Shown here: one piece after another, positions 2,786 to 40,661 of the stretch
Numbering within the stretch: the first letter of the stretch is position 1
Layout of the letters: the number at the start of each line of letters is the position of its first letter
Virus record (IMG/VR): IMGVR_UViG_3300005980_000002
Direction: 5' to 3' (one strand)
Length of the DNA: 41,474 nucleotides
DNA from: a virus
Position numbers and translations under genes: made by a program
The notes under the pieces: generated by a model
What the model saw: the letters and a program-made list of their open reading frames with translations, nothing else
What the model was told of the DNA's origin: nothing
Databases searched by the model: none

Positions 2786-2897
2786 CCTCTGCACATGTCC
2801 CCGCTCCGTGTACAACCCGCGCACCACAAGACCCACGAACCCTGACTGCCCACGACACGGCAACGATACGGAACACGACGGAACTTCCGGGTAAACT

Positions 2898-3686
2898 GTG
2901 AGGGTGACCAACTGCGCCTGTGACGACCAGCCCGAGGGTATCTACCTTTGCCCGGGATGCCGGGACATCCTCCTCGACGACCTGCGGAGGGTGGAGTCCA
3001 CGGTCGAAGCGATCTGGGCGTCCGCGGCCCGCATGAACGTCGGGAACGGGTCCGTAGGATCCTCCGGGCACTCCTCCCCCAGCGAACCCACGAACGCCAG
3101 GGCGTACGACACCGGCCGCACCCTGAACGTTATCCTCACCGGCTGGGCCCGCGCCCTCGGGCACACCGAACCCCACGCTGTGAAGGCCGCCGCCGTGCTG
3201 CTCGCACAGATCCGCGAGGTACGGGAGCAGGAGTGGGCGCCGGTGTTGAAGCAGGAACTCCGGGAAGCGTTGACGGACTGCGACCGGGCAACGGACCGGG
3301 CAGCGCCGAGGATCTTCGCCGGGATCTGCCCGACTGAGGAGGGCGGGGTGGAGTGCGGGACGCCCGTGTACGCGCCGGAGGGGAAACCTGAGGCGCGGTG
3401 CCGGACGTGCGGGGCGACGTGGGATGTGACGGACTGGCGGGAACGCGCTCTGGTCGCGGCCGGCCCCGCGACGGCGACCGCGGCGGAGCTCACCCGGATC
3501 CTCTCCGACCCGGTCCGGGCGTTGGTGTTCCCGCAGAACAAGGTGGCGGTGTGGGTGAACCGGGGGAAGCTCGCCCCTATGGGGGTCCGTGACGGGCGGG
3601 CGGTGTATCAGGTGCGGAAGGTCCGTAATCTGTGGGAGAGAGCGCAGGCCGTGTCCGCGGCCCGACGTGAGAGGCTGGCAGCATGA
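2898..3686 (+). CDS. putative DNA-binding protein with Cys-pair (zinc-ribbon-like) motifs
   Basis: ORF track 262 aa with a GTG start (alternative GTG at 2904). Contains CPGC near the N-terminus and C-x7-C...CRTC in the middle. The C-terminal third resembles excisionase/AlpA-type HTH proteins. Preceded by CGGAAC/GGAACTTCC motifs. Confidence 0.65.
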   Translation: MRVTNCACDDQPEGIYLCPGCRDILLDDLRRVESTVEAIWASAARMNVGNGSVGSSGHSSPSEPTNARAYDTGRTLNVILTGWARALGHTEPHAVKAAAVLLAQIREVREQEWAPVLKQELREALTDCDRATDRAAPRIFAGICPTEEGGVECGTPVYAPEGKPEARCRTCGATWDVTDWRERALVAAGPATATAAELTRILSDPVRALVFPQNKVAVWVNRGKLAPMGVRDGRAVYQVRKVRNLWERAQAVSAARRERLAA

Positions 3687-4123
3687 CGATCACTGAGTTC
3701 CTGGAAGCCCGCGTGAGTGAGGATGAGGCGGCAGCGCGGGCAGCGTTCGAGGATGGATTCTTCGGCGAAGACAAGCACGACAAAGGCGAGTGGGAAGCTA
3801 ACACGTCAAGCGCGATGCCGAACGTTGACGGCGCCTACATGAACATCATGGTCAGCGACGAGATGGGTTCAATGAACCACGAGCAGGCCGCCCACATCGC
3901 CCGCCACGACCCTGCCCGTGTCCTTGCCGAGTGCGCCGCGAAACGGGCGATCATCAAGTCATACCGCTCATGCGTGGGTGCGGAGGCCGCAGTGGATGTG
4001 ACCACAGAGTTCGGCGTAAAGCTCGTCTCGGGTGGCATGGTCAAGGGGCTGGAACTTGCGGTCAAGTACCTTGCCGCGGTATACGCCGACCACCCGGACT
4101 ACCGGCAGGCGTGGGCGCTGTAG
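3683..4123 (+). CDS. hypothetical protein, resembles the actinobacterial/phage DUF6221-type family
   Basis: ORF track 146 aa. Contains the ...IARHDPARVLAECAAKRAII... signature as I recall it for that family; not verified. Confidence 0.7.
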   Translation: MTITEFLEARVSEDEAAARAAFEDGFFGEDKHDKGEWEANTSSAMPNVDGAYMNIMVSDEMGSMNHEQAAHIARHDPARVLAECAAKRAIIKSYRSCVGAEAAVDVTTEFGVKLVSGGMVKGLELAVKYLAAVYADHPDYRQAWAL

Positions 4124-4232
4124 AGGCGACACACCCGTGAGGCGGAACACTAGACATCTTTGCGGAACACCTGTAACGTAGGTAATGAACAAACTGCGAG
4201 AAGTGGCCTTGAGACCTCCACTCACGCGCACG

Positions 4233-4270
4233 AGGCCCGCCGTATTCCCCCAGACCGGCGGGCCTCTTTC
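4233..4270 (+). terminator. GC-rich hairpin with a short T tract
   Basis: GAGGCCCGCCG (4233-4243) pairs with CGGCGGGCCTC (4256-4266), followed by TTTC. Confidence 0.5.
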
Positions 4271-4548
4271 ATGCCCCAGCGCCATCCCTGGGTAAGAGGT
4301 TGGCAACGTTGGCCCCGGGAGTGCTGCAGATCCTCCCGGGGCTGGCACCACAGATCACCCCGGATGCATAAGTGAAGGCCGGGGCGGGAAGCGCCCGTTA
4401 TAGCGCGAGCCCATCAAGTCCTGTCACGCGGCAGGGCCGCTGCTCTGGGTGGCCAGCCGTGAGGCTGTCCGTGGTCCTCAGCAGCTCCCCACTCAAAGGA
4501 GCCGCCCCGCCCCGCTACCTACCGTTCACACGGGGGTCGCGGGTGCAT

Positions 4549-4620
4549 TGGTTACTAGCTCAACGGCAGAGCAACGCACTGTTAATGCGTCGGTTCGTGG
4601 TTCGAATCCACGGTAGCCAG
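4549..4620 (+). tRNA. tRNA-Asn (anticodon GTT)
   Basis: Hand-folded cloverleaf: 7-bp acceptor stem (one G-U), D stem GCTC/GAGC, anticodon stem ACGCA/TGCGT with loop CTGTTAA, 5-nt variable loop, T arm CGTGG-TTCGAAT-CCACG, discriminator G. CCA is not encoded. Confidence 0.9.
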
Positions 4621-4694
4621 CTGATCGAAAGACGCCGACCAACGATCGAGAACGCGGCCGATCCAGTAGATCACCCCAGTGAAGGAGAGCGGCT

Positions 4695-5912
4695 ATGGCG
4701 TTGTGCAAGTACGCTGAGGCCGCCGCCGCCCACCCGTCCACGGAGACGGAAACCCCGGCCGTCGCCCGGGACCTGGGTGTGGGTGAGCGGACGATCCGCC
4801 GGCACCGCGCCGGCCAGTGCTGCTGCACCCCCGACAAGGGCGGCACCGACGAGGGTGTCACCTCGTACACGCTCACCTCCGCGAGGGCGTGGGGGTACGA
4901 GGACTTCCGGAAGTTCATCGCCTCCACCGGGCAGGACCCCGACCGGGTCACGTTCAACTGGGGGGTCACTTCCAACCCGGCCGGCGGTTTTTGGAATAAG
5001 TTGAACAACGTCCGCCCCAAGGGTGGGCGCAACTTCGAGCATGTGGACCTGCCCGCCTTGTACGCGGCTGCCGAAGCGTCCACACCCCGCCCGGTACCCG
5101 TCACGGGGACCCGCGGGACCGTGATCGTCTACGCCGACCCCCAGGTGGGGAAAACCGGCCGGCGCGGTGGGACGAAGGAACTCATCGAACGGTCCACGAT
5201 CATCCGGGCCAAACTCGACACCCACCTCGCCGCCAAGGACATCACCCGGATCCTCCTCGCCGACGTCGGCGACGGGATCGAAGGGTTCGAATCCGGCGGG
5301 AACCCGATGTTCACGAATGACCTGTCCCTCGCCCAGCAACTCGACACGTACGGGACGGAACTGTTCAAGTTCGTCAACACCGCCCACAAGCACGCACCCG
5401 TCACCGTCGCCGGGGTCCCGTCAAACCACACCGCGTGGCGGAACGGTAAGCAGAACCTCGGACGCCCCTCCGATGACCTCGGCCTCCTCATGCACACCCA
5501 AGTCCAGTACCGCACCGAGGACCGCGGCATGGACGTCGCCTGGTTCCGGCCCGACACGTACGACGAGTCCGTGGCCGTTGATCTCCTCGGCACACGGGTG
5601 GGTCTCGTCCACGGGAACCAGTTCGCCCCCGGGCAGGGTGTGTCCTGGTGGGAGAAGCAAACGTTCGGTGCGCAAGCAGCAGCGACCGCTGACATCCTCG
5701 TCCACGGGCACTACCACACGTTCAGCAGCAACGTCGCCGGCCGCAACCCACACACGGGTCGGCAACGCTGGTGCCTGGGAGCCCCGACCCTGGACAACGG
5801 CTCCGACTGGTACCGGCAAGTCCAAGGCCGCGACTCCGACCCGGGCCTCCTCGTCTTCGACGTCACGGAGAACGGCTTCGACCTCGCCTCCCTCACCATC
5901 ATCACCGCATAA
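4695..5912 (+). CDS. calcineurin-like metallophosphoesterase with an N-terminal HTH-like segment
   Basis: ORF track 405 aa with RBS GAAGGAG. Motif series: YADPQVGK / ADVGDGIEG / VPSNHTAW / LVHGNQ / VHGHYH. The N-terminus contains ARDLGVGERTIRRHRAG. Confidence 0.8.
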   Translation: MALCKYAEAAAAHPSTETETPAVARDLGVGERTIRRHRAGQCCCTPDKGGTDEGVTSYTLTSARAWGYEDFRKFIASTGQDPDRVTFNWGVTSNPAGGFWNKLNNVRPKGGRNFEHVDLPALYAAAEASTPRPVPVTGTRGTVIVYADPQVGKTGRRGGTKELIERSTIIRAKLDTHLAAKDITRILLADVGDGIEGFESGGNPMFTNDLSLAQQLDTYGTELFKFVNTAHKHAPVTVAGVPSNHTAWRNGKQNLGRPSDDLGLLMHTQVQYRTEDRGMDVAWFRPDTYDESVAVDLLGTRVGLVHGNQFAPGQGVSWWEKQTFGAQAAATADILVHGHYHTFSSNVAGRNPHTGRQRWCLGAPTLDNGSDWYRQVQGRDSDPGLLVFDVTENGFDLASLTIITA

Positions 5913-5932
5913 CACCAAACAGGAGTAACACC

Positions 5933-6121
5933 ATGGCAATCACCGTCATCACCGCAACAGACACGGTCGCGATCCCCGACGGGACGGGCTGGCACGTGGA
6001 CGACAGAGGCTACCTGCACATCCTCAAGGCCGGCGAAGGCAACGCGGCGACCTTTCACGCCCAAGCTTGGCAGTCCGTGGAACGCGGAACCCGACACGAA
6101 CTCATCGGGAGGGCGGCATGA
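5933..6121 (+). CDS. hypothetical protein
   Basis: Internal ATG of ORF 5771..6121, with AGGAG 8 nt upstream. Confidence 0.6.
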   Translation: MAITVITATDTVAIPDGTGWHVDDRGYLHILKAGEGNAATFHAQAWQSVERGTRHELIGRAA

Positions 6122-6351
6122 AGCAGCTTGTCTTTGAACTGACCGCATCCCCCCGCGGGGCGATCATGACCCGCGGCGTACTGGAAGAACACCCCACCCG
6201 GTTAGCCGCACTCCCCAAGGTGCCCCCGTTCTTCCGGGCCATCACCGGCTCCTACGCCTACCTCGCCGCGGAAGCCTCCAGACTCAACGAAGCGCAGATC
6301 CGCTGTGGCTTCCTCGACTACGTCTACGCACCCGACGTCAAAGCCGCCTAA
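6118..6351 (+). CDS. hypothetical protein
   Basis: Internal ATG of ORF 6067..6351 in an ATGA overlap. Confidence 0.6.
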   Translation: MKQLVFELTASPRGAIMTRGVLEEHPTRLAALPKVPPFFRAITGSYAYLAAEASRLNEAQIRCGFLDYVYAPDVKAA

Positions 6352-6400
6352 CCAGTAACGGCTGATTCTCAACAATCACACATAAGGCGGTGAGCGCATT

Positions 6401-6925
6401 GTGCCTGCTAGCAAGTACACCGAGACACAACGCGCCGAAGCCGTAGAGCTCTACCGCACCCAAGGCCCAACAGCCGTCCAAGACCAACTCGGGATTGCCA
6501 AAGGCACCGTCGCAGGATGGGCCAAAGAAGCAGGCGTCCGAACGGTTCGGAACGAGCGTACATACGAGGCGACTCAAGCAGTGAAGTTCGATGCTGCGTT
6601 AGCCCGAGCTGAGTTGATCCAGTTGCAGTACGAGCGGGCTAAGAAGGTCATGGCCCGGTTGAATGCGCCGACGTTCAAGACGCTTGTTCCGGTGAGCCCT
6701 GGGCGGCAGGAACCGCAGGAATTGGACTTCGTGCCGGCTGTTGAGGAACGTGCGCTGTCGGGATCGGTGTCCGCGTATGCTTCCGTGGCGAAGAACCTCG
6801 AGGCAGTGAATTCCGGGCAGGATATGGCGGCAACTGATTCAGTGGTGGATTCCCTCTTGGCCGGTTTCCGAGCGCATCATGCATCAGCGGCGAAGCGGGC
6901 TCCTGTGGGGGATGAGAGCCGGTGA
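6401..6925 (+). CDS. terS: terminase small subunit (HTH-containing)
   Basis: ORF track 174 aa. N-terminal HTH (QDQLGIAKGTVAGWAKEAG). The stop overlaps the terL start. Confidence 0.65.
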   Translation: MPASKYTETQRAEAVELYRTQGPTAVQDQLGIAKGTVAGWAKEAGVRTVRNERTYEATQAVKFDAALARAELIQLQYERAKKVMARLNAPTFKTLVPVSPGRQEPQELDFVPAVEERALSGSVSAYASVAKNLEAVNSGQDMAATDSVVDSLLAGFRAHHASAAKRAPVGDESR

Positions 6926-8184: not shown

Positions 8185-8197
8185 GAGGGCGTGCCCG

Positions 8198-10964: not shown

Positions 10965-10975
10965 AGGAGAACCCC

Positions 10976-11224: not shown

Positions 11225-11226
11225 CC

Positions 11227-12578: not shown

Positions 12579-12594
12579 CTGAAAGGCATCATCC

Positions 12595-13443: not shown

Positions 13444-13455
13444 GGAGCCTGAACC

Positions 13456-13818: not shown

Positions 13819-14177
13819 GCGCCGCCGAGGAGAAGGCAACCGTCCACATCCTCGGCGAGGGAGGCGGCGTGTTCGAACTGTCCCTGCCCCTGCACGAGAG
13901 TGTCGCGGACCGTCTGGCGAAGGGTCACCTCCGCCGTGTCCGCCCGGACGGGTCCCCGTACGTGGAGGGCGAACGCCCCGAGGGTGTCCCGTCGCTGCCG
14001 GAGTCCCGTCCCGCCCTGAACGCCGTGAAGGCCGAATGGGTGGGCTGGGCTGTGGTGCAGGGACTGTCCCCGGACGAGGCTGAGGCGCTGACGAAGGCGG
14101 ATCTGATCGAGCGCTTCGGCGCCGGCCCAACGCCTGGGGATGATCCGGTCGAGACGCCAGGAGAGTCAACAGAGTAA
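13815..14177 (+). CDS. hypothetical protein with a C-terminal HeH/SAP-like segment
   Basis: ORF track 120 aa with an ATGA overlap; contains ...LSPDEAEALTKADLIERF... Confidence 0.65.
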   Translation: MSAAEEKATVHILGEGGGVFELSLPLHESVADRLAKGHLRRVRPDGSPYVEGERPEGVPSLPESRPALNAVKAEWVGWAVVQGLSPDEAEALTKADLIERFGAGPTPGDDPVETPGESTE

Positions 14178-14456: not shown

Positions 14457-14810
14457 TCACGAACGGACCTGCTCCCACGCTACATCGCGACCGGCTTTTG
14501 CTTCTTCCAGCCTCTCCTTCGGGGTTTTGGGGATGTCGTCCACTGTCGTGAAATCGACTGATCTGAACAGATCGTCAACGGATACGCCAAGGATCTGTGC
14601 AAGTGCGAGAAGTTCGGCGGCCCTGAAGGACCTGTTGCCAGATTCCATCATGTACATGACTTGGCGAGCCACCTGGCGCTTGTTCAGGACCTGAGCGAAC
14701 CGAGCGCCTAATTGGGTCGCGCTCATGCCGATTGCATTGCGGTAAAGCTTGACGTTGGCACCTATGGTGCGTTCAACCAACTCTGTGTCAATAATCATAG
14801 GACTAATCAT
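14457..14810 (-). CDS. XRE/Cro-C1-type helix-turn-helix transcriptional regulator
   Basis: ORF track 117 aa. HTH core ...IGMSATQLGARFAQVLNKRQVARQVMYMMESGNRSF.... Third codon positions are visibly AT-richer than in flanking genes. One of only two minus-strand genes (with 20605-20913) in the 4.7-27.2 kb virion/lysis block. Confidence 0.85.
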   Translation of the reverse strand: MISPMIIDTELVERTIGANVKLYRNAIGMSATQLGARFAQVLNKRQVARQVMYMMESGNRSFRAAELLALAQILGVSVDDLFRSVDFTTVDDIPKTPKERLEEAKAGRDVAWEQVRS

Positions 14811-14835
14811 ATAGGAACTTCCCTAGTGTTCCTAT
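14811..14835. promoter_or_regulatory. Palindrome ATAGGAAC-N9-GTTCCTAT abutting the XRE start codon; candidate operator
   Basis: Arms at 14811-14818 and 14828-14835. Contains GGAACTTCC (14814-14822). Confidence 0.45.
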
Positions 14836-27272: not shown

Positions 27273-28037
27273 TTAAGCGCCCTTCAAGAACTGCAGCACC
27301 CGGGCGGGTTGGAATGCGGACGGGTCTCCATGTTCACCCTGCACGGGCACGACCGTCACGTCTACACCTGCTGCCTTGGCGGCCGCCGCACACACATCCG
27401 TGTTCGACGCTTTCGGAACCGTTGTATCAGCCGGGGATGAGAAAAAGATGGCGCGGAACCCGGGCGGGTAGGCCGGCTGCACAGGAGAGAGGGCCGTGGG
27501 CGCGCCACCAGGCCACGCCTGCCGGAACGTGGGGAACTTATCCGTCATAGATGCGAGGTTACACACCGGGTACACCCCGATGAACGACTTCGCAGGGACC
27601 CGCCCGACGAGCTGCAACGCGGCAAGGCCGCCCATCGACTGCCCCAGCAGGACCACATCATCTGACCCGGTCTTAGCCTCAGCCCACGCGTAGAGGTCCT
27701 CGTAGGCTTTCACTGACGCCGGACTCCCCCACGCGTTCCCGGCACCGTCCGACGTCGCGAGACTGTACCCGGCGCCCAGGAGGGCTTGACGCACGCCGGC
27801 CTGAAGGTCGCCGGTCAGCCATTCGTCAACATCTCCCCCGTGACCGTGCACGGCCATGACGAGTGACCCGTTCGGGTGCGGGGGGACGATGAGGCCGACC
27901 TTGTCCGCGCCGATGACTGCCCTCGTCTCACCGGGCGACGGCACAACTTTGGGCGTTGGGGTGGCGGGGTTCGTTGCGGGTGCGGTGGAACACCCCGCCA
28001 GGAGTAGGCAGAGCAGCAAACCGGCACGTAATCCCAT
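27273..28037 (-). CDS. secreted lipoprotein alpha/beta-fold hydrolase (esterase/lipase-like)
   Basis: In ORF 27273..28199, start chosen at the internal Met giving MGLRAGLLLCLLLAGC (signal peptide plus lipobox LAGC). Motifs: nucleophile elbow GQSMGG, HGHGGD, and C-terminal GEHGD. Confidence 0.8.
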   Translation of the reverse strand: MGLRAGLLLCLLLAGCSTAPATNPATPTPKVVPSPGETRAVIGADKVGLIVPPHPNGSLVMAVHGHGGDVDEWLTGDLQAGVRQALLGAGYSLATSDGAGNAWGSPASVKAYEDLYAWAEAKTGSDDVVLLGQSMGGLAALQLVGRVPAKSFIGVYPVCNLASMTDKFPTFRQAWPGGAPTALSPVQPAYPPGFRAIFFSSPADTTVPKASNTDVCAAAAKAAGVDVTVVPVQGEHGDPSAFQPARVLQFLKGA

Positions 28038-28184
28038 CGCCCCAGCATAGAGCCTCAGGCTTTTCTCTGAGAGGTTTTTGGGAGGATGAGCCCCGGCAGG
28101 GCCTTGTAAGTTCCGTGCAGTCGGGTTTTTCTCCGCATAGTTCCCCACGGAACTTCCCCAGTCCGACACGCCGAACCCACGCGC

Positions 28185-28236: not shown

Positions 28237-28286
28237 TGGTGGGTCCTACCGGGATCGAACCGATGACATCCACGGTGTAAACGTGG
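28237..28286 (-). other. attP core: 3' 50 nt of a tRNA-Val(TAC) gene (anticodon arm to CCA), not a complete tRNA
   Basis: Reverse complement reads CCACG-TTTACAC-CGTGG ATGTC ATCGG-TTCGATC-CCGGT AGGACCC A CCA. No matching 5' acceptor or D arm follows. Lies 16 nt from the integrase stop. Confidence 0.75.
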
Positions 28287-28301
28287 CGATATTGCCCTGT
28301 A

Positions 28302-29441
28302 TCACGCGGGTTTTTCGAGGTTCAGGGAGGATTCTGGGAGGACCACGGCGGTGTGGGCGCTGATGAGGGAGTCCATGCGGGCGGCCACGTCGGAGAGTTC
28401 CTGGTCGAAGAGCCCGGCGTAAACGTCGAGGGTGATCTTCGCGGACGCATGGCCGAGCATCCTTTGGACGGACTTCACCGAGGCCCCGGAGTGGATGGCC
28501 AGGGACGCCGCGGTGTGCCGGAGGTCGTGGACCCACAGCCCGGCGGGCAGCCCTGCTTTGGTGACTGCGGGATCGTAGTCGCGGCGCTTGAAGTTGTTCG
28601 ACCGCATGGCCTTTCCCCGCGGGGTTGGGAAGAGCAGGTCATCCCGCCGCTTCCCCAGAAGCCGGGGCGCGAGCCTGCCAATGATGAATGCCGTCACCGG
28701 CACGTCCCTTTCCTGCCCTCCCTTCGGCGGGCCGATGAGCATGCGGCCCTCGACGTCGGTAATGGACCGGGACACCCGGATCCGCTGGCGCCGCAGCTGG
28801 ACATCCTTCGCCCGCAGTTCGGCGGCCTCCCCGAACCGGAGCCCAGTGGTCGCGAGGAACCAGATGAGGTCACGGTAGTGCGGGCTGATCGCGTCGGCCA
28901 GGGCCTCGACTTCGGGAATGGTCAGGTAGATATGCTCCCGCTTCACCCCTTTGGGCAGGTTCACGCCTTTGGCCGGCGAAGCGGTGATCCTGCCCTCGTC
29001 GACGCACCAGTTCAGAAAAGACCGGAACCGGCCGTAGATCGTGTCGACGGTACGGGCGGCCTTGTCCATCCCGGACACCCAGGCCTGAATGTCGGCGCGG
29101 GTGATGTCGGCGAGGATCCTCCCGCCCCAGTACGGCTTGATCGTGGCGCGGACGTCGGAGCGTGTCGCGGCGAGCGTGGAGGGTTGCAGGTGGACCTGGG
29201 TCTCCACCCAGCCGTCGATGAGGTCCCGGACGTAAACCCTCCCCAGGTCCCGGGACACGTACGTCCCGGACCGCTGGTTGTGTTCGACCCAGACAAGGTG
29301 GGCCCGGGCTGAGTCTTTGGACGTGAAGGATTTCTTCTTCTCCGCGCCGGCCTCAACCCAGACCGCCTGCCACCGTTTGCCCTTCCCGTAGAGCGGGGTG
29401 CGGGTCTTGTCCTTCCGCACCCACCGGTCATCGACACGCAC
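28302..29441 (-). CDS. int: tyrosine integrase
   Basis: ORF 28302..29708, with start taken at the in-frame GTG 29441 that overlaps the upstream gene's TAG (alternative ATG at 29483). C-terminal signature ...HDLRHTAASLAIHSGASVKSVQRMLGHASAKITLDVYAGL... Confidence 0.9.
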   Translation of the reverse strand: MRVDDRWVRKDKTRTPLYGKGKRWQAVWVEAGAEKKKSFTSKDSARAHLVWVEHNQRSGTYVSRDLGRVYVRDLIDGWVETQVHLQPSTLAATRSDVRATIKPYWGGRILADITRADIQAWVSGMDKAARTVDTIYGRFRSFLNWCVDEGRITASPAKGVNLPKGVKREHIYLTIPEVEALADAISPHYRDLIWFLATTGLRFGEAAELRAKDVQLRRQRIRVSRSITDVEGRMLIGPPKGGQERDVPVTAFIIGRLAPRLLGKRRDDLLFPTPRGKAMRSNNFKRRDYDPAVTKAGLPAGLWVHDLRHTAASLAIHSGASVKSVQRMLGHASAKITLDVYAGLFDQELSDVAARMDSLISAHTAVVLPESSLNLEKPA

Positions 29442-29749: not shown

Positions 29750-29862
29750 CGGCGTGAGCCCTCACTGTCTAAGAACGCTCCTACGTGGCGCGTTCACCGT
29801 TAGGGTACATCGTTCCGCCGTGTTCCGTTTTTGTCGGGGGTCTGTGCAGGGGGTGGCGGGTG

Positions 29863-30360
29863 TTACTCCGGAACTGGATTTTCGCGGTTTATGCGGGTTC
29901 GATAGTTATTGAATCGATATGAAAGCTCGGATATTAGCTCCTCGTCAGTGAGGAGGTATGCCCGTCTTACCGGCTCTCCTCCACCGCTGGACACCTGGGA
30001 GTCAAGGATCTTCCATGAGACTTCGCCGCCGCCCTCCTGCATGGTCTCAAGAGTGACGGATTCCACCGGCGTGTGATCGGCGCTATCGAGCACGTCTTTG
30101 ATGGCTCCGTACCGCCAGCCGAGGGCTTCCTCGACCTTGTTTTGGTTGATTTCCCAGGCTACGCGGGTACCCCTTTCCATGGAGGCGAGGGTCTTGGTAT
30201 CCACGCCGGAGAAGGTAGCGAAGGGTTTCTGTGAGAACCCCTTTTGAAGGCGCGCTTTTTTGATTAGCTTGCCGATGGCTTCGAGTGCTTCCGATTCGTT
30301 CACTTGCTCATGGTGTCGCACAACTTTTGCACTTACAAGTGACCCGTTTTGCGGAACCAT
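29863..30360 (-). CDS. XRE-family repressor (candidate immunity repressor)
   Basis: ORF track 165 aa. HTH ...ARLQKGFSQKPFATFSGVDTKTLASMERG.... Divergent from a cro-like gene. Low-GC codon usage. Confidence 0.8.
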   Translation of the reverse strand: MVPQNGSLVSAKVVRHHEQVNESEALEAIGKLIKKARLQKGFSQKPFATFSGVDTKTLASMERGTRVAWEINQNKVEEALGWRYGAIKDVLDSADHTPVESVTLETMQEGGGEVSWKILDSQVSSGGGEPVRRAYLLTDEELISELSYRFNNYRTRINRENPVPE

Positions 30361-30374
30361 GCCCGTGATTGCGT

Positions 30375-30405
30375 AATAGGTAGCCTATTCGAACACGTAT
30401 TCGAA
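30375..30405. promoter_or_regulatory. Candidate operators in the repressor/cro intergenic region
   Basis: Palindrome AATAGGtagCCTATT (30375-30389). TATTCGAA is repeated at 30386-30393 and 30398-30405 (TTCGAA is itself palindromic). Confidence 0.45.
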
Positions 30406-30493
30406 AACTACATCCTTGGCATTATGGGTCTTGTTCCGATCTGTTATGCACTGGTCCTTGCTAACCTCCCCAGTGTTCCGTATAGTTACGCAT

Positions 30494-30763
30494 ATGAACA
30501 CACAACGAAAACCCCGCGGCCCCGTCCAGGGGAGAAACGACCCCGACCCGAAGAAAACCGGGCAGAACCTCCGCGAAGCCCGGATCGCCCGCGGCGTGAC
30601 CCAGCGTGAGATGGCGGAAGCCCTCGGCTACTCCGCGCACAACGGCGTCACCCATCTGGAGGCCGGCACCCGGATCCTCTCCGACACGGACCTCCGGGTC
30701 GCGGCCGACTTCCTCGGCATCGCCCCCTCCGTGATCCGTCAGTCCGTGAAGGCCGCCCGATGA
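30494..30763 (+). CDS. Cro-like XRE HTH regulator
   Basis: Internal ATG of ORF 30416..30763; contains ...LREARIARGVTQREMAEALGYS... Confidence 0.75.
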   Translation: MNTQRKPRGPVQGRNDPDPKKTGQNLREARIARGVTQREMAEALGYSAHNGVTHLEAGTRILSDTDLRVAADFLGIAPSVIRQSVKAAR

Positions 30764-31929: not shown

Positions 31930-32117
31930 GTCGGATCCGGGTGTACCAGTGCAAGGACGACTGCTGCCTCGTCCAGGTCCCGTCGAAGCGGTTCTGGTTT
32001 GTCGAGTTCGCCGGGGTGAAAACGACGCTCACCCGGTTCGGGGACGCAATCGGTTTGGCGGCCAGGAACGCGGAACTCCTCGCCCGGACCCTCCCGACCT
32101 TGGAGCCGACGGCGTGA
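31926..32117 (+). CDS. hypothetical protein
   Basis: Internal ATG of ORF 31902..32117 in an ATGA overlap. Confidence 0.6.
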   Translation: MSRIRVYQCKDDCCLVQVPSKRFWFVEFAGVKTTLTRFGDAIGLAARNAELLARTLPTLEPTA

Positions 32118-32308
32118 CCGGGGACGCGAAAGTCGTGGAGGTCGCCAAGTTCCTGGGCGTCCACCCGGAGACGGTGCGGGAGCTCGCGAGGGCGAACCGT
32201 TTCCCCGGCGCGTACAAGACAGGTTCGGGGAAGGTCAACTCACCGATCCGGATCCCGTGGTCGGATGTTCAGGCGTTCCGGGAGAAACAGCCGAGGGTCC
32301 ACGGATGA
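32114..32308 (+). CDS. excisionase/MerR-type HTH DNA-binding protein (Xis candidate)
   Basis: GTG 32114 in a GTGA overlap. Contains ...VVEVAKFLGVHPETVRELARANRFPGAYKTG...IRIPWSDVQAF... Confidence 0.65.
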   Translation: MTGDAKVVEVAKFLGVHPETVRELARANRFPGAYKTGSGKVNSPIRIPWSDVQAFREKQPRVHG

Positions 32309-32454
32309 AACGGCTGACGTATGCGGAACTCATCACTGAGTGGTCCCGTTCCGCCGCGGTGACTGCCATCCACGGCCCGCACGTGGAGGGGAACCGTACG
32401 CAAACCTTACTGCGCTTCGCCATGCTCCCCCACTACGACGAGGTCCGTCAGTGA
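32305..32454 (+). CDS. hypothetical small protein
   Basis: Internal ATG of ORF 32257..32454 in an ATGA overlap. Confidence 0.5.
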   Translation: MKRLTYAELITEWSRSAAVTAIHGPHVEGNRTQTLLRFAMLPHYDEVRQ

Positions 32455-32744
32455 CCCCGGAGGAGCTGTTGTTCGCTGCAGTCCGGCAGGCGATCAACGA
32501 CGCGGAGGGCGCCGCCGGAACCCCGGACCACCTCCTGGACTTGCAGGCCGCCGCCGCTGTTGGTGCGGCCCGCCGTCTGGGGTGGGTGCATGGCGCCGGG
32601 TGGGAGTACGCCCTGATGGATGGGGACGTGACGGTGCAGCTCGGTTTCAACACGGAGTCCCAGGCGCGGGTGTGGGCCGCTGAGCAGGGCACCCGGTTGG
32701 TGGTGGAGCGCCGGCGGGTTGGGGTATGGGAGCGGCTCCCGTGA
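32451..32744 (+). CDS. hypothetical protein
   Basis: GTG 32451 in a GTGA overlap, in frame with ORF 32340..32744. Confidence 0.6.
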   Translation: MTPEELLFAAVRQAINDAEGAAGTPDHLLDLQAAAAVGAARRLGWVHGAGWEYALMDGDVTVQLGFNTESQARVWAAEQGTRLVVERRRVGVWERLP

Positions 32745-32745
32745 G

Positions 32746-32784
32746 GGAAGTTCCGCATCCGGGTGGAAGTTCCTTTATTTTTTT
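32746..32784 (+). terminator. Hairpin formed by two GGAAGTTCC copies, followed by a T-rich tract
   Basis: GGAAGTTCC at 32746-32754 and 32765-32773 can pair as 4+4 bp with a central mismatch. TTTATTTTTTT follows. Confidence 0.5.
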
Positions 32785-32806
32785 GCCGTTTTTGACCAGA
32801 AGGGTG

Positions 32807-32837
32807 TGGAACTATACGTAACTTACGGTATGCTGTA
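32807..32837 (+). promoter_or_regulatory. Promoter-like element (TGGAAC-N16-TATGCT) of a conserved family
   Basis: Shares GGAAC, ACGTAACTT and GGTA(T/G)GCTGTA blocks with 40562-40594. Lies upstream of gene 32907. Confidence 0.45.
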
Positions 32838-32906
32838 GGAACAAACGAAGGGCCCGGAAGGTGCAACTCCCGGACCCCGAATCATCACTACCACTAGGAG
32901 CAGACA

Positions 32907-35349: not shown

Positions 35350-35816
35350 ATGACCGCCAGTTCGCCCTCTTCATGAGCCACGTCGAGATATCTGACGGTT
35401 GCTGGAATTGGACTGGAACCACTGACCGCGCCGGCTACGGCATGGTCCGGGCTGGGGCTCACATGGTGCTAGTGCACCGCCACATGTTCACCCATGCAGT
35501 CGGAGAGATCCGACCTGGGATGGAGGTGGACCACATCTGCCACAACAGGTCATGTGTGAGGCCGTACCACCTGCGGGAAGTGACCCGCAAGCAGAACATG
35601 GAAAACCTCTCAGGCGCCCTGTCCACGAATAAGTCCGGAATCCGCGGTGTCTACTGGCGCCCAGACAAGCAGAAATGGATTGTCCAGGTCGGGCACAACA
35701 AGCGCAAGCACCACGGCGGGATGTTCAACACTGCCGAGGAGGCCGAACAAGCGGCCATTGCACTCCGGAACAGCCTCTACACCCACAACGAAGCAGACAG
35801 GAAGGTAGCGTCATGA
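35346..35816 (+). CDS. HNH endonuclease with a C-terminal AP2-type DNA-binding domain
   Basis: Internal ATG of ORF 35310..35816. HNH part: ...CWNWTG...GYG...VDHICHNRSCVRPYHL...QNMEN. AP2-like part: ...SGIRGVYWRPDKQKWIVQVGHN...FNTAEEAEQAA... Confidence 0.85.
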   Translation: MNDRQFALFMSHVEISDGCWNWTGTTDRAGYGMVRAGAHMVLVHRHMFTHAVGEIRPGMEVDHICHNRSCVRPYHLREVTRKQNMENLSGALSTNKSGIRGVYWRPDKQKWIVQVGHNKRKHHGGMFNTAEEAEQAAIALRNSLYTHNEADRKVAS

Positions 35817-36154
35817 ACGGCCGATCCTTTGCTCTCTACCTCGCCCGCGATATGCACTGCCCCTGTGGGTGTGTGGGCCGTGAGGACACGTTCGTCCCAC
35901 AGCACCGCATTAACCGTGGCATGGGTGGGTCCAAGGTCCTTGACCGGCCGGCGAACGTGATCGTCCTGTGTGCCGAATGGAACGGGCTCATCGAGTCGAA
36001 CCCGAACTGCGCGGCCCTGGCACGCGACTACGGGTGGAAGCTCTCCCGCTGGGACTCCCCTGAAGACACACCATTCTGGGACATCGCAACGCGCACCTGG
36101 AACCTGATCGACAACACCTACAACCGCGTAATCACAACGAAGAAAGCAGCGTAA
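35813..36154 (+). CDS. second HNH-family endonuclease
   Basis: Internal ATG of ORF 35675..36154. Contains CPCGC...[12 protein letters not shown]...[15 protein letters not shown]. Confidence 0.65.
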
Positions 36155-36156
36155 AC

Positions 36157-36642
36157 ATGGCAGGCGAAACCACGATCACAGTGATCGGCAATCTGACCAA
36201 CGACCCCGAGCTCCGCTTCACCCCGAGCGGATCCGCGGTCGCGAACTTCACGATCGCATCAACCCCGAGGACGCTCGACAAGCAGAGCAACGAGTGGAAG
36301 GACGGGGAGACCCTGTTCCTCCGGGCCAGTGTGTGGCGGGAGGCTGCTGAGAACGTCACCGAGTCCCTGACCAAGGGTATGCGCGTCATCGTCTCCGGCC
36401 GGCTCAAGTCCCGGTCCTACGAAACCAAGGAAGGCGAGAAGCGCACCGTCATCGAGCTGGAAGTCGACGAGATCGGGCCGTCCTTGAAGTACGCGAACGC
36501 GAAGGTAAACCGCACCCAGCGCTCCGGAGGGCAGGGGAACAGCGGAGGCAACACCCAGGGCGATGGGCAGTGGGGCGGTAACCAGCCGGCCCAGGACGAT
36601 CCGTGGGGCAACGGCGGAGCCGACGCCGAGCCGCCCTTCTAG
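36157..36642 (+). CDS. ssb: single-stranded DNA-binding protein
   Basis: ORF track 161 aa. OB-fold N-terminus (...[18 protein letters not shown]...), Gly-rich linker and an acidic tail ending PPF. Confidence 0.9.
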
Positions 36643-36661
36643 GCACCGCCCGTACTACCTG

Positions 36662-36696
36662 GGACCCGTCCGGCACCATGCCGGGCGGGTCCTTTC
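36662..36696 (+). terminator. Intrinsic terminator after ssb
   Basis: 12-bp stem GGACCCGTCCGG/CCGGGCGGGTCC (one G-U), loop CACCATG, then TTTC. Confidence 0.65.
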
Positions 36697-36757
36697 GCGT
36701 GTGCGTAACTCGGCGGAAAATACTCACGCGACACGCCGAAATACTCGCGTATCTATA

Positions 36758-36785
36758 CGGAACTTACGCCATGTTGAGGTAAACT
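36758..36785 (+). promoter_or_regulatory. Promoter-like element CGGAAC-N16-TAAACT
   Basis: Same architecture as 32807 and 40562. Preceded by the direct repeats AATACTC(A)CGCG at 36717-36730 and 36740-36749. Confidence 0.4.
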
Positions 36786-36864
36786 ACTTGTGTAAGCAAA
36801 AGAAAAAACCTGCCTAGCGCTCGAACGCTAGACAGGCCATCGATCCAAAGGAACGGTCTCTGAA

Positions 36865-37095
36865 ATGAAGCATAAGCCCAATACAAGCGCGCCCGCAACC
36901 CCCGACGACCTCCGGGTCCTCCGCGAAGCATCCGAAGAGTACGAACGCCTCCGCACCGCCGCCAAAGAAGCCGCGGCCCGCAGGAAACTCCTCGCAGCCG
37001 CCGCCGCGAAAAAACACACGTACGCTGCCCTCGCCGAAGCCGCCGGCGTCTCCGTCGGCCACGCACACGTCCTCGTCAACGGACGCGCAGCATGA
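36865..37095 (+). CDS. hypothetical small protein with a possible C-terminal HTH
   Basis: ORF track 76 aa; contains ...HTYAALAEAAGVSVGHAHVLVNG... Confidence 0.6.
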   Translation: MKHKPNTSAPATPDDLRVLREASEEYERLRTAAKEAAARRKLLAAAAAKKHTYAALAEAAGVSVGHAHVLVNGRAA

Positions 37096-37760
37096 AGACG
37101 GTCATCAGCCTGTGCGACCTGACCGGCAACATGGTCACCCCGTGGGTAGAGGCCGGATACAACGTTGTCTTAGTAGACCCGCAGCATGGCACCACGCGTA
37201 CACAAACCATGCCCAACGGCGCTACGATCACCCGCTTTGCCGGCACCGTCGAAGATGCCATGCCGCTGATCGCCGCACTGATCACCGCCGGCGTCGTCGC
37301 TGCCGTCTTCGGCTTCCCGCCCTGCACGGACATGGCCGTGTCCGGCGCCCGCTGGTTCGAGGCTAAGCGCGCCGCGGACCGGATGTTCCAGGCGAAGGCC
37401 GTCATGGTGGCGGAGCAGTGCCGGACGATCGGCCGGCTATCCGGCGCCCCGTACATGGTGGAGAAGCCCGTCTCGGTCCTCGCGTCGGCGTTCGGGAAGC
37501 CGCAGCACACGTTCCACCCGGCGGACTTCACCGCCTACGAACCGGGGGACAACTACACGAAGAAGACGTGTCTATGGACTGGGGGGGGCTTCGTCATGCC
37601 GACACCCGCTAAAGACTCGCTACTGGGCGCCCCGGACAATCGGATTCACTTCGCGAGCCCCGGTCCGGAGCGCGCCAACTTCCGCAGCGCTACTCCGATG
37701 GGTTTTGCCCGGGCCGTATTCGACGCGAACCACCATCCGGCGCTGGAGGTGGCGGCATGA
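37092..37760 (+). CDS. short DNA cytosine-C5 methyltransferase-like protein
   Basis: ORF track 222 aa. Has an N-terminal SLCDLTGN (motif I-like), GFPPCTDMAVSG (PC motif IV-like) and MVEKP (ENV-like). No obvious long target-recognition domain. Confidence 0.55.
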   Translation: MKTVISLCDLTGNMVTPWVEAGYNVVLVDPQHGTTRTQTMPNGATITRFAGTVEDAMPLIAALITAGVVAAVFGFPPCTDMAVSGARWFEAKRAADRMFQAKAVMVAEQCRTIGRLSGAPYMVEKPVSVLASAFGKPQHTFHPADFTAYEPGDNYTKKTCLWTGGGFVMPTPAKDSLLGAPDNRIHFASPGPERANFRSATPMGFARAVFDANHHPALEVAA

Positions 37761-37963
37761 GCTGGAGCCGGGCCAAGACCGCGCAGGAGCGCCTGGACGA
37801 GGCGGAGCGGCTGCTCCGCGGTGGGGCGTCCCAGAAGGAAGTGAGCCGCACGACCGGGATCTCCCGCGGCGTCCTCGGCAAGCACTTCCCGGACCTGAAG
37901 TGGACATTCAAGGAGGCCGGAGAGTTCCGGGCCGCTACACGATATGTGAAGGTGACGATCTGA
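37757..37963 (+). CDS. small HTH DNA-binding protein
   Basis: ORF track 68 aa; contains ...GASQKEVSRTTGISRGVLGKHF... Confidence 0.6.
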   Translation: MSWSRAKTAQERLDEAERLLRGGASQKEVSRTTGISRGVLGKHFPDLKWTFKEAGEFRAATRYVKVTI

Positions 37964-38829
37964 TGGCACGCGATAGGGCGAACATCAACACGAATATCCA
38001 CACGGACCAGGACTGGCGGGACCTCACGATCGCGGAACAGCACCTCTACTGGCTCCTTTCCACCCACCCGGACCTGAACTACGTCGGCGTCGTGGACTGG
38101 CGCACAGCCCGCCTCTCAGCGATGGCGGCTGACGCCACACGGGAGGGCCTCCAGGCCACCGCCGAGAGCTTGCAGGACAAGCGGTTTGTGTTCATCGACG
38201 AGGACACGGAGGAGATCCTCGTGCGGTCGTTCATGCGGCACGACGGGCTGTTGAAGCAGCCGAAGCTGTCCATCTCGATGGTCAACGCTTACGGGTCGGT
38301 GGCGTCTAAGTACATCCGCGAGGTCGTGACTTTCGAGTTGCAGCGGCTCTTCGCGGAGTTCCCGGAGTGGGCTGCTTTCCGTCAGGAAAAGGTCATGGCT
38401 TTGGTCAAGGGTAAGGGTACGGATATGGCTGCGTTTACCCATGGCGTTACCCCTGCGTTTACCCTAAACGTTGCCCAAGCTGACCCCCTGCCTACTACTA
38501 CAGCTACTACTACAACTACAGAAGATAAATCTTCTACCCGCCCTACCGGGCCGGACGAGTTCGATCGGTGGTACTCGGCTTATCCGAGGAAGGTCGATAA
38601 GGGCCATGCCCGGACGGCGTTCAAGGCGGCCCGGAAGAAGACCAGCTTGGAGGTGCTCATGGCCGGGGTGGAGCGGTTCGCCCATGAGTCACAGGGGACC
38701 GAGGCGAAGTACCTCGCTTACCCGGCGACGTGGCTCAACGGGGAACGGTGGGAAGACACCACCCCGGAACAGACCGTCGTAACGGGCCCGTGGTCCAAGG
38801 ACTTCCACCAGACAGGAACCCACTCGTGA
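37963..38829 (+). CDS. replication organizer / helicase-loader-like protein
   Basis: Internal ATG of ORF 37705..38829 overlapping the upstream TGA. C-terminal ...FDRWYSAYPRKVDKGHARTAFKAARKK...YPATWLNGERWED is typical of phage replisome-organizer C-termini. Lies upstream of DnaB. Confidence 0.55.
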   Translation: MARDRANINTNIHTDQDWRDLTIAEQHLYWLLSTHPDLNYVGVVDWRTARLSAMAADATREGLQATAESLQDKRFVFIDEDTEEILVRSFMRHDGLLKQPKLSISMVNAYGSVASKYIREVVTFELQRLFAEFPEWAAFRQEKVMALVKGKGTDMAAFTHGVTPAFTLNVAQADPLPTTTATTTTTEDKSSTRPTGPDEFDRWYSAYPRKVDKGHARTAFKAARKKTSLEVLMAGVERFAHESQGTEAKYLAYPATWLNGERWEDTTPEQTVVTGPWSKDFHQTGTHS

Positions 38830-40130
38830 ACGATACGACAGCACCCCCGCAAGACGTCGACGCTGAACGTTCCACCCTGGGGTCGATGATGCTTTCGGCC
38901 GAGGTGATCCAGGACGTCACGGATCTGGTTACAGGGCCGGACTTTTACCGACCGGCGCACGAGACAATCTTCCGGACTATCCTCGATTTGCACGCCCGGC
39001 ACGAACCGGTCGACGTCGTAACCGTCTCGGACGCCCTCTCCCGCGATGGGGACGTCGAACGGGTCGGTGGAGTCGGATACCTGCATGAACTCGCCCAGGC
39101 GTGCCCCACGCCGTCTGCTGGGGGCTATTACGCGGGGATCGTGGCCAAGCAGGCCGTCCGCCGCCGGCTGGTTACCGCGGCGCACAAGATCGGGCAGCTC
39201 GCGCACCAGCCCGGGGATGAGTCGGAGCTCGTCGAGTTCGCCCGAAAGGAAGTCGACGCGACCTCCAAAGCCACCACACACACGGTTCAATCGTTCGGGG
39301 AGACCATCGACGCGATGCTCGGACAGCTCGATGAGAAGCCGAACTACATCCCCACACCGTGGGCGTCCCTGAACGAGATCATCGGCGGCCTGCGACCGGG
39401 CGGCCTGTACGTCGTCGGGGCCCGGCCCTCGGTCGGGAAGTCGGTCATCGCCCTGCAGTTGGCGAAGGCGATGACGGCGCACGGGTCGGTGGCGTTCTCC
39501 TCCCTCGAAATGAGCGAGTCGGACGTGCAGATGAGGGCCGTGTCCGCGGACCTCCGCATCGACCTGCGGCGCTTGATCGAACGGGACCTGACCGTGGAGG
39601 ACTGGGAGAAGATCCGACGCCGCCGCGCCGCGTGGGAGAACGTCCCCCTGTTCGTGGACGACAACTCCGGGCTGACGATCACGGACATCAAACGCTTCGC
39701 CCGGTCCGTGAACCGCCGTAAACCCCTCGCGGGCCTGGTCGTGGACTATCTGCAGCTCATGGCGCAGCCGCCCGGGGATAAGCGTCCCAGGCATGAGTTC
39801 GTGTCGGACATGTCCCGGCAGTTGAAAATCCTGGCGATGGACATGCGGATCCCGATCGTGGCCTTGTCTCAGTTGAACCGCGGGTCGACGCAGCGGGAGG
39901 ACAAGATGCCGACGATCGCTGATTTGCGGGAGTCGGGGTCGATTGAGCAGGACGCCGACGTGGTGATCCTGTTGCACAGGGAGATCATGGGCGAGAAGCG
40001 CGGGGACTTGGCGATGCTGGTCGCGAAGAACCGGAACGGGGCGACGAACGTCGCGCACCTGTCGTTCTGGGGGCACTACTCGATGGCGTTGGATCCGGGC
40101 ACACTCCCCCGTTCGGCGGCCGCGGCGTGA
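38826..40130 (+). CDS. dnaB: DnaB-family replicative helicase
   Basis: GTG 38826 in a GTGA overlap, in frame with ORF 38730..40130. N-terminus ...PQDVDAERSTLGSMML..., Walker A GARPSVGKS, and ...SQLNR... Confidence 0.9.
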   Translation: MNDTTAPPQDVDAERSTLGSMMLSAEVIQDVTDLVTGPDFYRPAHETIFRTILDLHARHEPVDVVTVSDALSRDGDVERVGGVGYLHELAQACPTPSAGGYYAGIVAKQAVRRRLVTAAHKIGQLAHQPGDESELVEFARKEVDATSKATTHTVQSFGETIDAMLGQLDEKPNYIPTPWASLNEIIGGLRPGGLYVVGARPSVGKSVIALQLAKAMTAHGSVAFSSLEMSESDVQMRAVSADLRIDLRRLIERDLTVEDWEKIRRRRAAWENVPLFVDDNSGLTITDIKRFARSVNRRKPLAGLVVDYLQLMAQPPGDKRPRHEFVSDMSRQLKILAMDMRIPIVALSQLNRGSTQREDKMPTIADLRESGSIEQDADVVILLHREIMGEKRGDLAMLVAKNRNGATNVAHLSFWGHYSMALDPGTLPRSAAAA

Positions 40131-40576
40131 GGGAGTGGGTGGTGACGGTCCCGGCCCCGGTGGTGAAGCCGGTCCGGAAACGCAAGACCGGGAAGCTGTT
40201 CCAGCGGACGGCGCTCCTGAACTCCAACGACAGGGACCATTGGCGGGTTACGCACCCGATCAAGGCGGGGTGGAGGGCGAACGCCGCCGCGGCCGCTGAG
40301 GGTGCGGGCCTGCCCCGGGGTTTGGGGCGGGTGGAGGTCACCGGCCTGGTGGTGAAGCCTCGCGCCGGCACGTATGACGCGCAGAACTTTTACCCGACGG
40401 CGAAGGCGGTTGTGGATGGGTTCATTGATCACGGCATGTGTGTGGATGATTCGAATGAGTTTGTGGTGGGCCCGTTTTTGTTCCCGGGTCCGAAGGGTGC
40501 GACGGCTTTGATTGTGACGGTCCGGGAGATCGCCGCGCCGGAAGAAACGACACCAACTTTACGGAACATCACGTAA
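40127..40576 (+). CDS. rusA: RusA-like Holliday junction resolvase
   Basis: ORF track 149 aa; contains ...YDAQNFYPTAKAVVDGFIDHGMCVDDS... Confidence 0.7.
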   Translation: MREWVVTVPAPVVKPVRKRKTGKLFQRTALLNSNDRDHWRVTHPIKAGWRANAAAAAEGAGLPRGLGRVEVTGLVVKPRAGTYDAQNFYPTAKAVVDGFIDHGMCVDDSNEFVVGPFLFPGPKGATALIVTVREIAAPEETTPTLRNIT

Positions 40577-40594
40577 CTTCTGTGGTAGGCTGTA
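40562..40594 (+). promoter_or_regulatory. Promoter-like element CGGAAC-N18-TAGGCT, paralogous to 32807-32837
   Basis: Shares ACGTAACTT (40571-40579) and GGTAGGCTGTA (40584-40594) with the 32.8 kb element. Overlaps the rusA stop. Confidence 0.45.
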
Positions 40595-40661
40595 AACAAC
40601 ATGAAGGAAGCCCCGGCGATGCGTGAACATCCCGGGGCCTTGACGGAAAGGAAGTTCCGCA

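Follow-up and report, generated by a model that had tools for sequence, protein, structure and literature searches.

The window analyzed here, the whole 41,474-nucleotide (nt) stretch of IMG/VR record IMGVR_UViG_3300005980_000002, is a complete temperate phage genome of 41.5 kb and 65% GC that derives from a metagenome assembly (ENA ERZ27311005, contig k141_467344, 41,470 bp). It encodes a structural module, a tyrosine integrase, a CI-like repressor, a divergent cro-like gene of the helix-turn-helix (HTH) type, and early recombination and replication genes for SSB, DnaB, and RusA. Spread along it is the element studied in this work, a set of short GGAAC-like pentamers that recur on one strand at intervals of one helical turn. 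Judged from its sequence, the phage belongs to an uncultivated lineage with Arthrobacter as the host group. DnaB is 70 to 80% identical in prophages of Arthrobacter, Pseudarthrobacter, and Paenarthrobacter genomes, and a megablast search with 20 kb of the window found no match among isolated GenBank phages. The closest isolated phage, TripleJ (L113, Arthrobacter, NC_049470), is distant; its gp82, 48% identical to the window protein p262, is the only p262 homologue among isolated phages. About 130 related loci, labeled with L-numbers, were taken from IMG/VR and JGI metagenomes and sampled as regions of 12 to 20 kb. With the Cro protein as query, no relatives were recovered in IMG/VR.

A preliminary description of the window had singled out a near-palindromic 9-mer, GGAAGTTCC or its complement GGAACTTCC, and it does occur at exactly the six positions given there (2880, 14814, 28149, 32746, 32765, and 40650). 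Only 0.35 occurrences are expected, and none of 100 dinucleotide shuffles contained more than 3. All six lie in non-coding DNA, which makes up 11% of the window (binomial p = 1.9e-6). A related 17-mer, ACGGAACACG(A/G)CGGAAC, is likewise present at 2868-2884 (+) and 29812-29828 (-); as an exact pattern it matched 4 unrelated contigs, which are chance matches. For the half-site (A/G)CGGAAC the coordinates listed were all correct, but its proposed confinement to non-coding DNA did not hold, since 18 of the 34 copies (20.8 expected) lie in genes, and the listed copy at 40561 itself falls within the 3' end of the RusA-like gene. The genic copies are close to the chance level. The 16 non-coding copies compare with 3.8 expected under an even spread (p = 1.7e-7).

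The 9-mer is not the unit of the element, which consists instead of pairs or triplets of same-strand pentamers in 10-bp phase. The functional unit appears to be the pentamer G(G/T)AAC, repeated on the same strand once per helical turn with the consensus GGAACACTAGGGAAC(TT) and with two to four units per site. The 9-mer then reads as a GGAAC unit followed by TTCC, that is, by a second, overlapping unit on the opposite strand; the copies at 2880 and 14814 are the second units of the sites that we call P1 and P5 (Table 1). Same-strand units in non-coding DNA are spaced 9 to 10, 19 to 20, 29 to 30, and 40 bp apart, and no such pattern is seen in coding DNA. When we searched for G(G/T)AAC-N5-G(G/T/C)AA(C/G) with a -10-like hexamer behind it, five sites of the window (P1 to P5) came up, along with their homologues in relatives. 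A 21-nt matrix built only from the sites of relatives, with a cut-off of at least 12 bits, gave 11 matches in the window against 0.66 expected (at most 5 in 100 random sequences), and all 11 are non-coding. The exact 15-mer GGAACACTAGGGAAC occurs in 29 IMG/VR contigs; 16 of these are high-GC contigs, all of them relatives carrying it in a promoter-like context, and the low-GC contigs are chance matches.

Table 1. Repeat sites, putative promoters, and associated genes in the window. Bit scores refer to the matrix built from relatives.
Feature	Coordinates	Strand	Details
P1, putative promoter-operator	2868-2906	+	Units GGAAC 2870-2874 and 2880-2884; 9-mer 2880-2888; 24.0 bits
Operator-like cluster after DUF6221 gene	4142-4178	+	GGAACACTAG at 4144, GGAAC at 4164 (20 bp on), GTAAC at 4173; 16.9 bits
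P5, putative promoter-operator of minus-strand XRE gene	14796-14835	-	GGAACACTAGGGAAG 14832-14818; 9-mer 14814-14822; 25.3 bits, best in the window
Four-unit cluster upstream of alpha/beta-hydrolase gene, adjoining attP	28106-28157	-	Homologous phased clusters in L144 and L151
Tyrosine integrase gene	28302-29441	-
P4, putative promoter-operator of operon of 102-amino-acid gene and integrase	29802-29828	-	GGAACACGGCGGAAC (29826-29812), gatg, -10 TACCCT (29807-29802)
CI-like XRE (HTH_3) repressor gene, candidate binder of the units	29863-30321 (30360)	-	Pfam HTH_3
Single GGAAC unit between palindrome and CI start	30353-30357	+	Two such units, 20 bp apart, in relatives
Pcro, putative immediate-early promoter with reversed units	30433-30496		-35 TTGCTA 30458-30463; -10 TATAGT 30481-30486; leaderless ATG 30494
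cro-like HTH gene	30494-30763		Divergent from CI gene
Early operon 1 terminator	32743-32786	+	9-mers 32746 and 32765 form hairpin arms, then TTTATTTTTTT
P2, putative promoter-operator of early operon 2	32808-32834	+	GGAACTATACGTAAC, ttacgg, -10 TATGCT (32829-32834); 24.4 bits
P6, cluster after SSB gene	36705-36785	+	GTAACTCGGCGGAAA at 36705; GTATC-N5-GGAAC 36749-36763; -10 TAAACT 36780-36785; 14.5 and 16.3 bits
P3, putative promoter-operator at end of RusA gene	40563-40591	+	GGAACATCACGTAAC, ttctgtgg, -10 TAGGCT (40586-40591); 20.0 bits
GAAAGGAAGTTCCGCAATG	40646-40664	+	9-mer overlaps Shine-Dalgarno sequence of gene 40662; 13.7 bits on minus strand

The position of the repeats relative to promoter-like hexamers is strikingly regular. 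At P1 to P6 the forward pair has the form unit-N5-unit and is oriented toward the downstream gene. A TANNNT hexamer, usually with a G in front of it, follows after 4 to 8 nt, so that the units lie at about -35 to -31 and -25 to -21 relative to the inferred start of transcription. The -10 hexamers at these six sites are good, and none of the sites has a TTGACA-like -35. Of the 11 matrix matches, at least 7 either precede a TANNNT hexamer by 0 to 8 nt or fall within the spacer of Pcro, the promoter of cro, and 8 have the orientation of the downstream gene, the exceptions being two overlapping matches at Pcro and the match at 40668. The forward pairs would thus mark six or seven promoters, which we infer to drive p262 and the late genes, early operons 2 to 4, the integrase operon, the minus-strand XRE gene, and perhaps the hydrolase gene. 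The cluster at 4142 has no convincing -10 hexamer, and the promoter of the CI gene itself was not located with confidence. In the cluster upstream of the hydrolase gene the minus-strand units are GGAAG (the outermost, formed by the 9-mer at 28157-28149), GGAAC (28144-28140), GGAGA, and GGAAC (28114-28110), the last three being 10 and 20 bp apart.

At P1 and P5 the -10 hexamer lies only 6 to 7 nt from a start codon, a layout that reads as the signature of leaderless mRNAs. P1 has the sequence GGAAC-acgac-GGAACttccggg-TAAACT-gtgagg-GTG, in which TAAACT (2892-2897) precedes GTG 2904 of the gene for p262, a zinc-ribbon/HTH protein. The p262 homologues of more than 10 relatives, at 30 to 75% identity, share the arrangement GGAAC-N5-GGAA(C/G)TTCC, 3 to 4 nt, TANNNT, 6 to 7 nt, ATG. 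On the minus strand, P5 reads GGAACACTAGGGAAG-ttccta-TATGAT-7 nt-ATG, with TATGAT at 14811-14806 and the ATG at 14798. The 9-mer at 14814, which in the preliminary description also supplies a Shine-Dalgarno-like sequence, is more likely promoter DNA of a leaderless layout. The neighboring plus-strand gene probably starts at ATG 14867, behind GAGGAGG, rather than at 14834. Likely corrected starts are thus GTG 2904 for p262 and ATG 14798 for the XRE gene, both leaderless; the hydrolase gene is likewise likely to be leaderless, with ATG 28037 behind TATGCT (28035-28049, minus strand).

Pcro is built differently. It fits the housekeeping consensus (TTGCTA-17-TATAGT), and its 17-bp spacer is filled with reversed units, CCTCC and GTTCC (30475-30479), followed by GTTAC (30485-30489), which overlaps the -10; a further reversed GTTCC lies at 30433-30437. 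Part of the -10 is supplied by the linker together with the unit that follows (GTTCC-G-TATAGT-TAC). The two matrix matches, both on the minus strand, score 19.3 and 21.2 bits. In every relative for which the region is available, a TTGCxx-17-TANNGT promoter with two reversed units in its spacer stands by a leaderless cro, the pair directly adjoining the -10 and often having one or two more reversed units upstream. A protein bound to this spacer would occlude the promoter, which is the classical position of an operator.

The forward layout is also conserved, being kept at homologues of P2, P3, P4, and P6 in roughly 40 related contigs. It precedes the integrase operons of about 15 relatives (with GGAAA in phages of the A type described below), the P3 layout is common to about 12, and P6 has homologues in L086 (6774), L089 (3260), L092 (5679), and L148 (10740). 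Downstream of P2, P6, and P3 (32849-32878, 36809-36838, and 40610-40638) the predicted 5' leaders consist of an A-rich run and then a GC hairpin, an arrangement conserved across relatives (e.g., AACAAAGAAGAAGCCCCG...); those at 32849-32878 and 36809-36838 resemble intrinsic terminators when read on the minus strand.

The 9-mers at 32746, 32765, and 40650 have additional roles that had been raised as caveats beforehand, correctly so for the pair. The pair at 32746 and 32765 forms the arms of a stable GC-containing hairpin (-28.5 kcal/mol, z = -3.7) that is followed by a U-run (UUUAUUUUUUU) and closes operon 1 immediately behind the stop codon of 32451-32744, as expected of an intrinsic terminator; each arm holds a reversed GTTCC unit. 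At 40650 the 9-mer shares bases with GAAAGGAAG, a good Shine-Dalgarno sequence for gene 40662, and this is the only copy that lies 3 nt before a start codon needing a ribosome-binding site. At both places relatives retain the 9-mer with its central base flipped, as a single TGA-GGAACTTCC-GCAC at the end of operon 1 in seven contigs and as GGAACTTCC in L087 (3419) at the site homologous to 40650, which argues that these copies are under selection as well. These observations bear on the idea that the six 9-mers share no function and are unrelated pieces, namely a ribosome-binding site, terminator arms, and chance occurrences. The Shine-Dalgarno overlap and the terminator stem speak for it, but the excess of the 9-mer over expectation, the recovery of the sites by a matrix trained on relatives, and the conservation of homologous sites despite the flipped base make it scarcely credible.

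A second box, CGACACG(G/C)C, occurs at 2853-2861, 28164-28172, and 36729-36737, and with one mismatch at 4127-4135, that is, 8 to 35 nt from several operator clusters of the window; in relatives, too, it lies near such clusters (GCGACACGCCCAAC, GGACACGCCGGAAGTTCC). As a signal of its own we rejected it, as it is not enriched in the window (48 occurrences with one mismatch against 62 expected) and accompanies only some of the sites.

Within a genome the repeat type is uniform at all sites, including the reversed copies at Pcro and the distant promoters, and it differs between lineages. The window and about 15 other contigs have GGAAC; GGAAA or GGAAT is found in L143, L144, L164, L165, and L103/L149, GGAAT in L106/L190, L191, L199, and L207, and GCAAC or GTAAC in L008/L160 and L156. 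Such differences separate even phages whose neighboring genes are 70 to 90% identical. The motif is absent from the Arthrobacter prophages L107 to L110, whose DnaB is 70 to 80% identical, and from their host flanks. This absence and the lineage-specific repeat type favor a phage-encoded, sequence-specific protein over a host sigma factor or regulator. Upstream of TripleJ gp82 (43800-43870) there is a 10-bp-phased repeat, CTAGAAC-ttg-CTAGAAT, that differs from the repeat of the window and may represent another form of this architecture.

We compared the nine protein families conserved between the integrase gene and operon 2, looking for alignment columns that separate genomes with C-type from those with A-type repeats. 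CI had five such columns, all in its HTH domain, and the 102-amino-acid protein had two; CI was the only family with several. Cro, the integrase, the Xis-like HTH_17 protein, and the four other early families had none and were rejected as specificity determinants. Two contrasts among relatives agree with this result. L143/L144 and L166/L151 share the Cro type, the palindrome TTCGAACAC(A/G)T(A/G)TTCGAA, and a CI C-terminal domain that is 70 to 75% identical, whereas their CI HTH domains are 55 to 61% identical and their repeats are of A/T type in the former and of C type in the latter. The second contrast is between L149 and L190/L199, which have the Cro type and a GTAATTAC-type palindrome in common; their CI HTH domains differ, and so do their repeat types. 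In the window, the near-perfect palindrome TTCGAACACGTATTCGAA occupies 30388-30405 in the interval from the CI gene to the cro gene. Most relatives have kept it; the GTAATTAC type takes its place in exactly those whose Cro is of the second type. Lying over the start of the CI transcript, it probably serves as the operator for Cro or as a second operator. On the simplest interpretation, the phased units are bound by CI and the palindrome by Cro. Of the three XRE proteins among which the preliminary description had sought the binder, CI would thus be the best candidate and the other two are poor ones: Cro type tracks a different palindrome, and the product of 14457-14798 has no homologue in any motif-carrying relative. 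The p262 protein was also rejected, its two C-terminal HTH types not following the repeat type.

CI has 152 amino acids and carries an extra C-terminal domain besides HTH_3. In two further loci, L196 and L197 (IMGVR_UViG_2848266934_000001 and IMGVR_UViG_2893596632_000001; about 2250-2500), CI homologues at 35% identity accompany an operator made of two direct copies of the 16-mer CTGCACTTTTATACAT, 33 bp apart from start to start, over a leaderless cro promoter. Since these loci also carry direct repeats, direct-repeat operators seem to be general in this family of CI repressors.

The explanation that we favor, with a probability of about 0.55, is that the repeats form a dispersed promoter-operator regulon of the CI-like repressor encoded at 29863-30321. 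CI would bind the units head to tail, two to four per site and possibly cooperatively. At Pcro, CI bound over the spacer and -10 would block RNA polymerase and thereby immediate-early transcription. The other promoters, six or seven in number, would rely mainly on their -10, and there CI would cover the -35 region and the upstream spacer. A single repressor could in this way directly silence every transcription unit of the prophage: the late genes through p262, early operons 2 to 4, int, and the minus-strand XRE gene. Those copies that close operon 1 also supply its terminator stem, and the one at 40650 overlaps a ribosome-binding site. This scheme takes the -10 hexamers to be real promoters and the binding of CI to be repressive. 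The proposal in the preliminary description of a dispersed, functional regulatory signal in non-coding DNA is supported by these results. Its suggestion of a stoperator-like block to elongation in short intergenic gaps does not fit, because most sites either precede a -10 hexamer by a fixed distance or lie in the spacer of the cro promoter.

Several points weigh against CI as the repressor acting at these sites. When more diverse CI proteins are included, most of the discriminating columns are no longer clean, and no simple residue-to-base recognition code could be derived; GTTCC operators pair with CI HTH domains that are mutually only 35 to 50% identical, and one A-type CI has the KTL recognition-helix residues of the C type. 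CI adjoins the Pcro operator, so part of the association could reflect linkage, and the comparison of binders covers the factors encoded in the regions sampled from relatives. XRE dimers usually bind inverted rather than direct repeats. Finally, the strict orientation of the pair and its strict spacing to the -10 at six classes of promoter form the pattern of an activator site or a -35 substitute, neither of which a repressor would need.

That last point leads to a phage early activator that replaces the missing -35, turns on the delayed-early, late, and int promoters, and shuts Pcro through the reversed copies, a reading that we regard as possible though doubtful. The lambda CII sites (TTGC-N6-TTGC) and the T4 MotA boxes (at about -30) are activator sites of this kind, replacing the -35 of promoters with a good -10, and the window has the same geometry of short direct repeats at a 10-bp period around -35. 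The forward sites share one orientation 4 to 8 nt upstream of the hexamer, which is the class II activator position; their promoters have no TTGACA-like -35, whereas Pcro, the only one with reversed units, has TTGCxx at 17 bp; and most of the target promoters drive lytic functions, only P4 with int serving lysogeny. What this explanation is short of is a candidate protein. Neither Pfam nor PHROGs detected a sigma factor or a CII-like or other activator family, no MotA homologue was detected, none of the early proteins (31385, 31902, HTH_17 at 32114, 32451, 32907, and Cro) has a column that tracks the repeat type, the C-terminal HTH type of p262 does not follow it, and searches of the PDB with the sequences of 31385, 32114, and p262 returned nothing useful; the protein that correlates best is a repressor. 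A missing -35 is moreover weak evidence, as actinobacterial promoters often function without a conserved one. A related and rather improbable variant makes the units not repressor operators but docking sites of a small phage protein that would take over -35 recognition from the host polymerase at every delayed-early, late, and int promoter, the reversed copies again shutting the immediate-early promoter. If this is true, a single protein would act as a temporal switch of a type not described for actinobacteriophages, and three variants of its specificity would exist in nature (GGAAC, GGAAA, and GGAAT).

Two further explanations involve other proteins. An architectural regulator of recombination directionality and transcription in the style of P2 Cox or 186 Apl, here the Xis-like HTH_17 protein (32114-32308) acting at attP and at promoters, would account for the four-unit cluster that adjoins attP (28106-28157) and for the one on the promoter of the int operon; Cox and Apl bind phased direct repeats at the switch and attP, and every sampled relative has kept the HTH_17 gene. 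It is quite unlikely, however, given that no column of the protein separates the repeat types, that its closest homologues (78% and 73%, in L143 and L144) belong to phages with GGAAA/T repeats, and that most sites are far from attP. Host extracytoplasmic function (ECF) sigma factors could be invoked for G(G/T)AAC, the hallmark -35 of actinobacterial SigH, SigE, and SigD promoters, the more so as the first unit lies 16 to 18 bp from the -10. ECF promoters combine a GGAAC -35 with a CGT/GTT-type -10 at 16 to 17 bp, though, and the -10 elements of the window are of the housekeeping TANNNT type. The spacer also holds a conserved second unit, that of Pcro contains reversed units, the fifth base is C, A, or T according to phage lineage and changes genome-wide, and neither L107 to L110 nor their host flanks contain the motif, all of which leaves an ECF sigma factor very unlikely.

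Among known systems, the phiC31 repressor binds 17-bp conserved inverted repeats near many early promoters and in intergenic regions. The window resembles phiC31 as a temperate actinophage genome with many dispersed operators in such places, but its repeats are direct, and their fixed placement in the -35 region or spacer is not a feature of the phiC31 repeats. It differs also from the start-associated sequences of the Cluster K mycobacteriophages, a motif that precedes many start codons, in that only the site at 40650 would qualify, that at 14814 being better read as promoter DNA. Closer parallels are found in the Cluster A mycobacteriophages, among them L5, whose repressor has many asymmetric sites across the phage genome (PMC9283540). 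As with L5 gp71 and TipsytheTRex (PMC9283540, PMC6550527), the sites in the window are many, dispersed, asymmetric, and mostly oriented with transcription, with one candidate repressor, and site specificity would evolve with that repressor. Cluster A phages, however, have more than 20 single 13-mers, compared with about 11 to 13 sites of two to four phased pentamers here; their sites occupy promoter-free gaps, whereas those of the window are nearly all on promoters, and nothing suggests an elongation block. The candidate repressor is furthermore an ordinary HTH_3 protein without detected sequence relation to the two-domain repressors of the gp71 type, and a phmmer search of CI against all PDB chains (E up to 10) found only short HTH domains of XRE and controller proteins and no mycobacteriophage repressor. 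Repressor C of P2 is an HTH protein that binds direct repeats on the early promoter, and binding of CII to direct repeats is mentioned in the same paper (PMC2995052). The window shares with the P2 C type an XRE-type candidate, non-palindromic direct repeats that span the -10/-35 of an early promoter, and a repeat sequence that differs by class; P2 half-sites, in contrast, are 8 bp long, two to three turns apart, and at one promoter, and here the units measure 5 bp, follow one another at one turn, and recur at no fewer than seven promoters.

Dispersed operators and direct-repeat operators are thus both already known; what we rate as new is the variant proposed here, a dispersed promoter-operator regulon of direct pentamer repeats in an uncharacterized lineage of Arthrobacter phages. 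Literature searches on the motif and on promoters of Arthrobacter phages, and the comparative paper on Cluster AZ, yielded no description, nor were any regulatory elements of this phage lineage described in the papers searched. With these sites, the transcription units and control sites of an uncultivated temperate lineage can be mapped in a form open to testing. They also constitute a natural series of matched operator and repressor variants, with C, A, or T as the fifth base and G, T, or C as the second, that is suited to studying how immunity specificity evolves and could supply orthogonal repressor-promoter parts for Actinobacteria.

Several other features of the window were observed. A tRNA-like 3' fragment (28238-28288) directly downstream of int is the probable attP core, and a complete tRNA-Asn (GTT) lies at 4549-4621 in the 571-nt gap that precedes the gene at 4695. 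The 279-nt gap between the end of a head gene at 14177 and the minus-strand XRE gene contains a full-length Rfam match to the DUF3800-IV RNA (RF02963; 14181-14271, plus strand; score 89 bits, gathering cut-off 60.7). A tandem array of 12/24-bp units (GCCGCACGGGCCGCCGCATGGGAC) occupies both ends of the window (1-99 and 41340-41471) and accounts for its most over-represented k-mers. The array belongs to an open reading frame that starts at GTG 40898, continues at position 1, and stops at TGA 187-189; its product contains the peptide repeat AAWDAA(G/R)AA. The genome is circular, and the window results from a cut within this repeat gene, with copy number and frame across the junction being uncertain.

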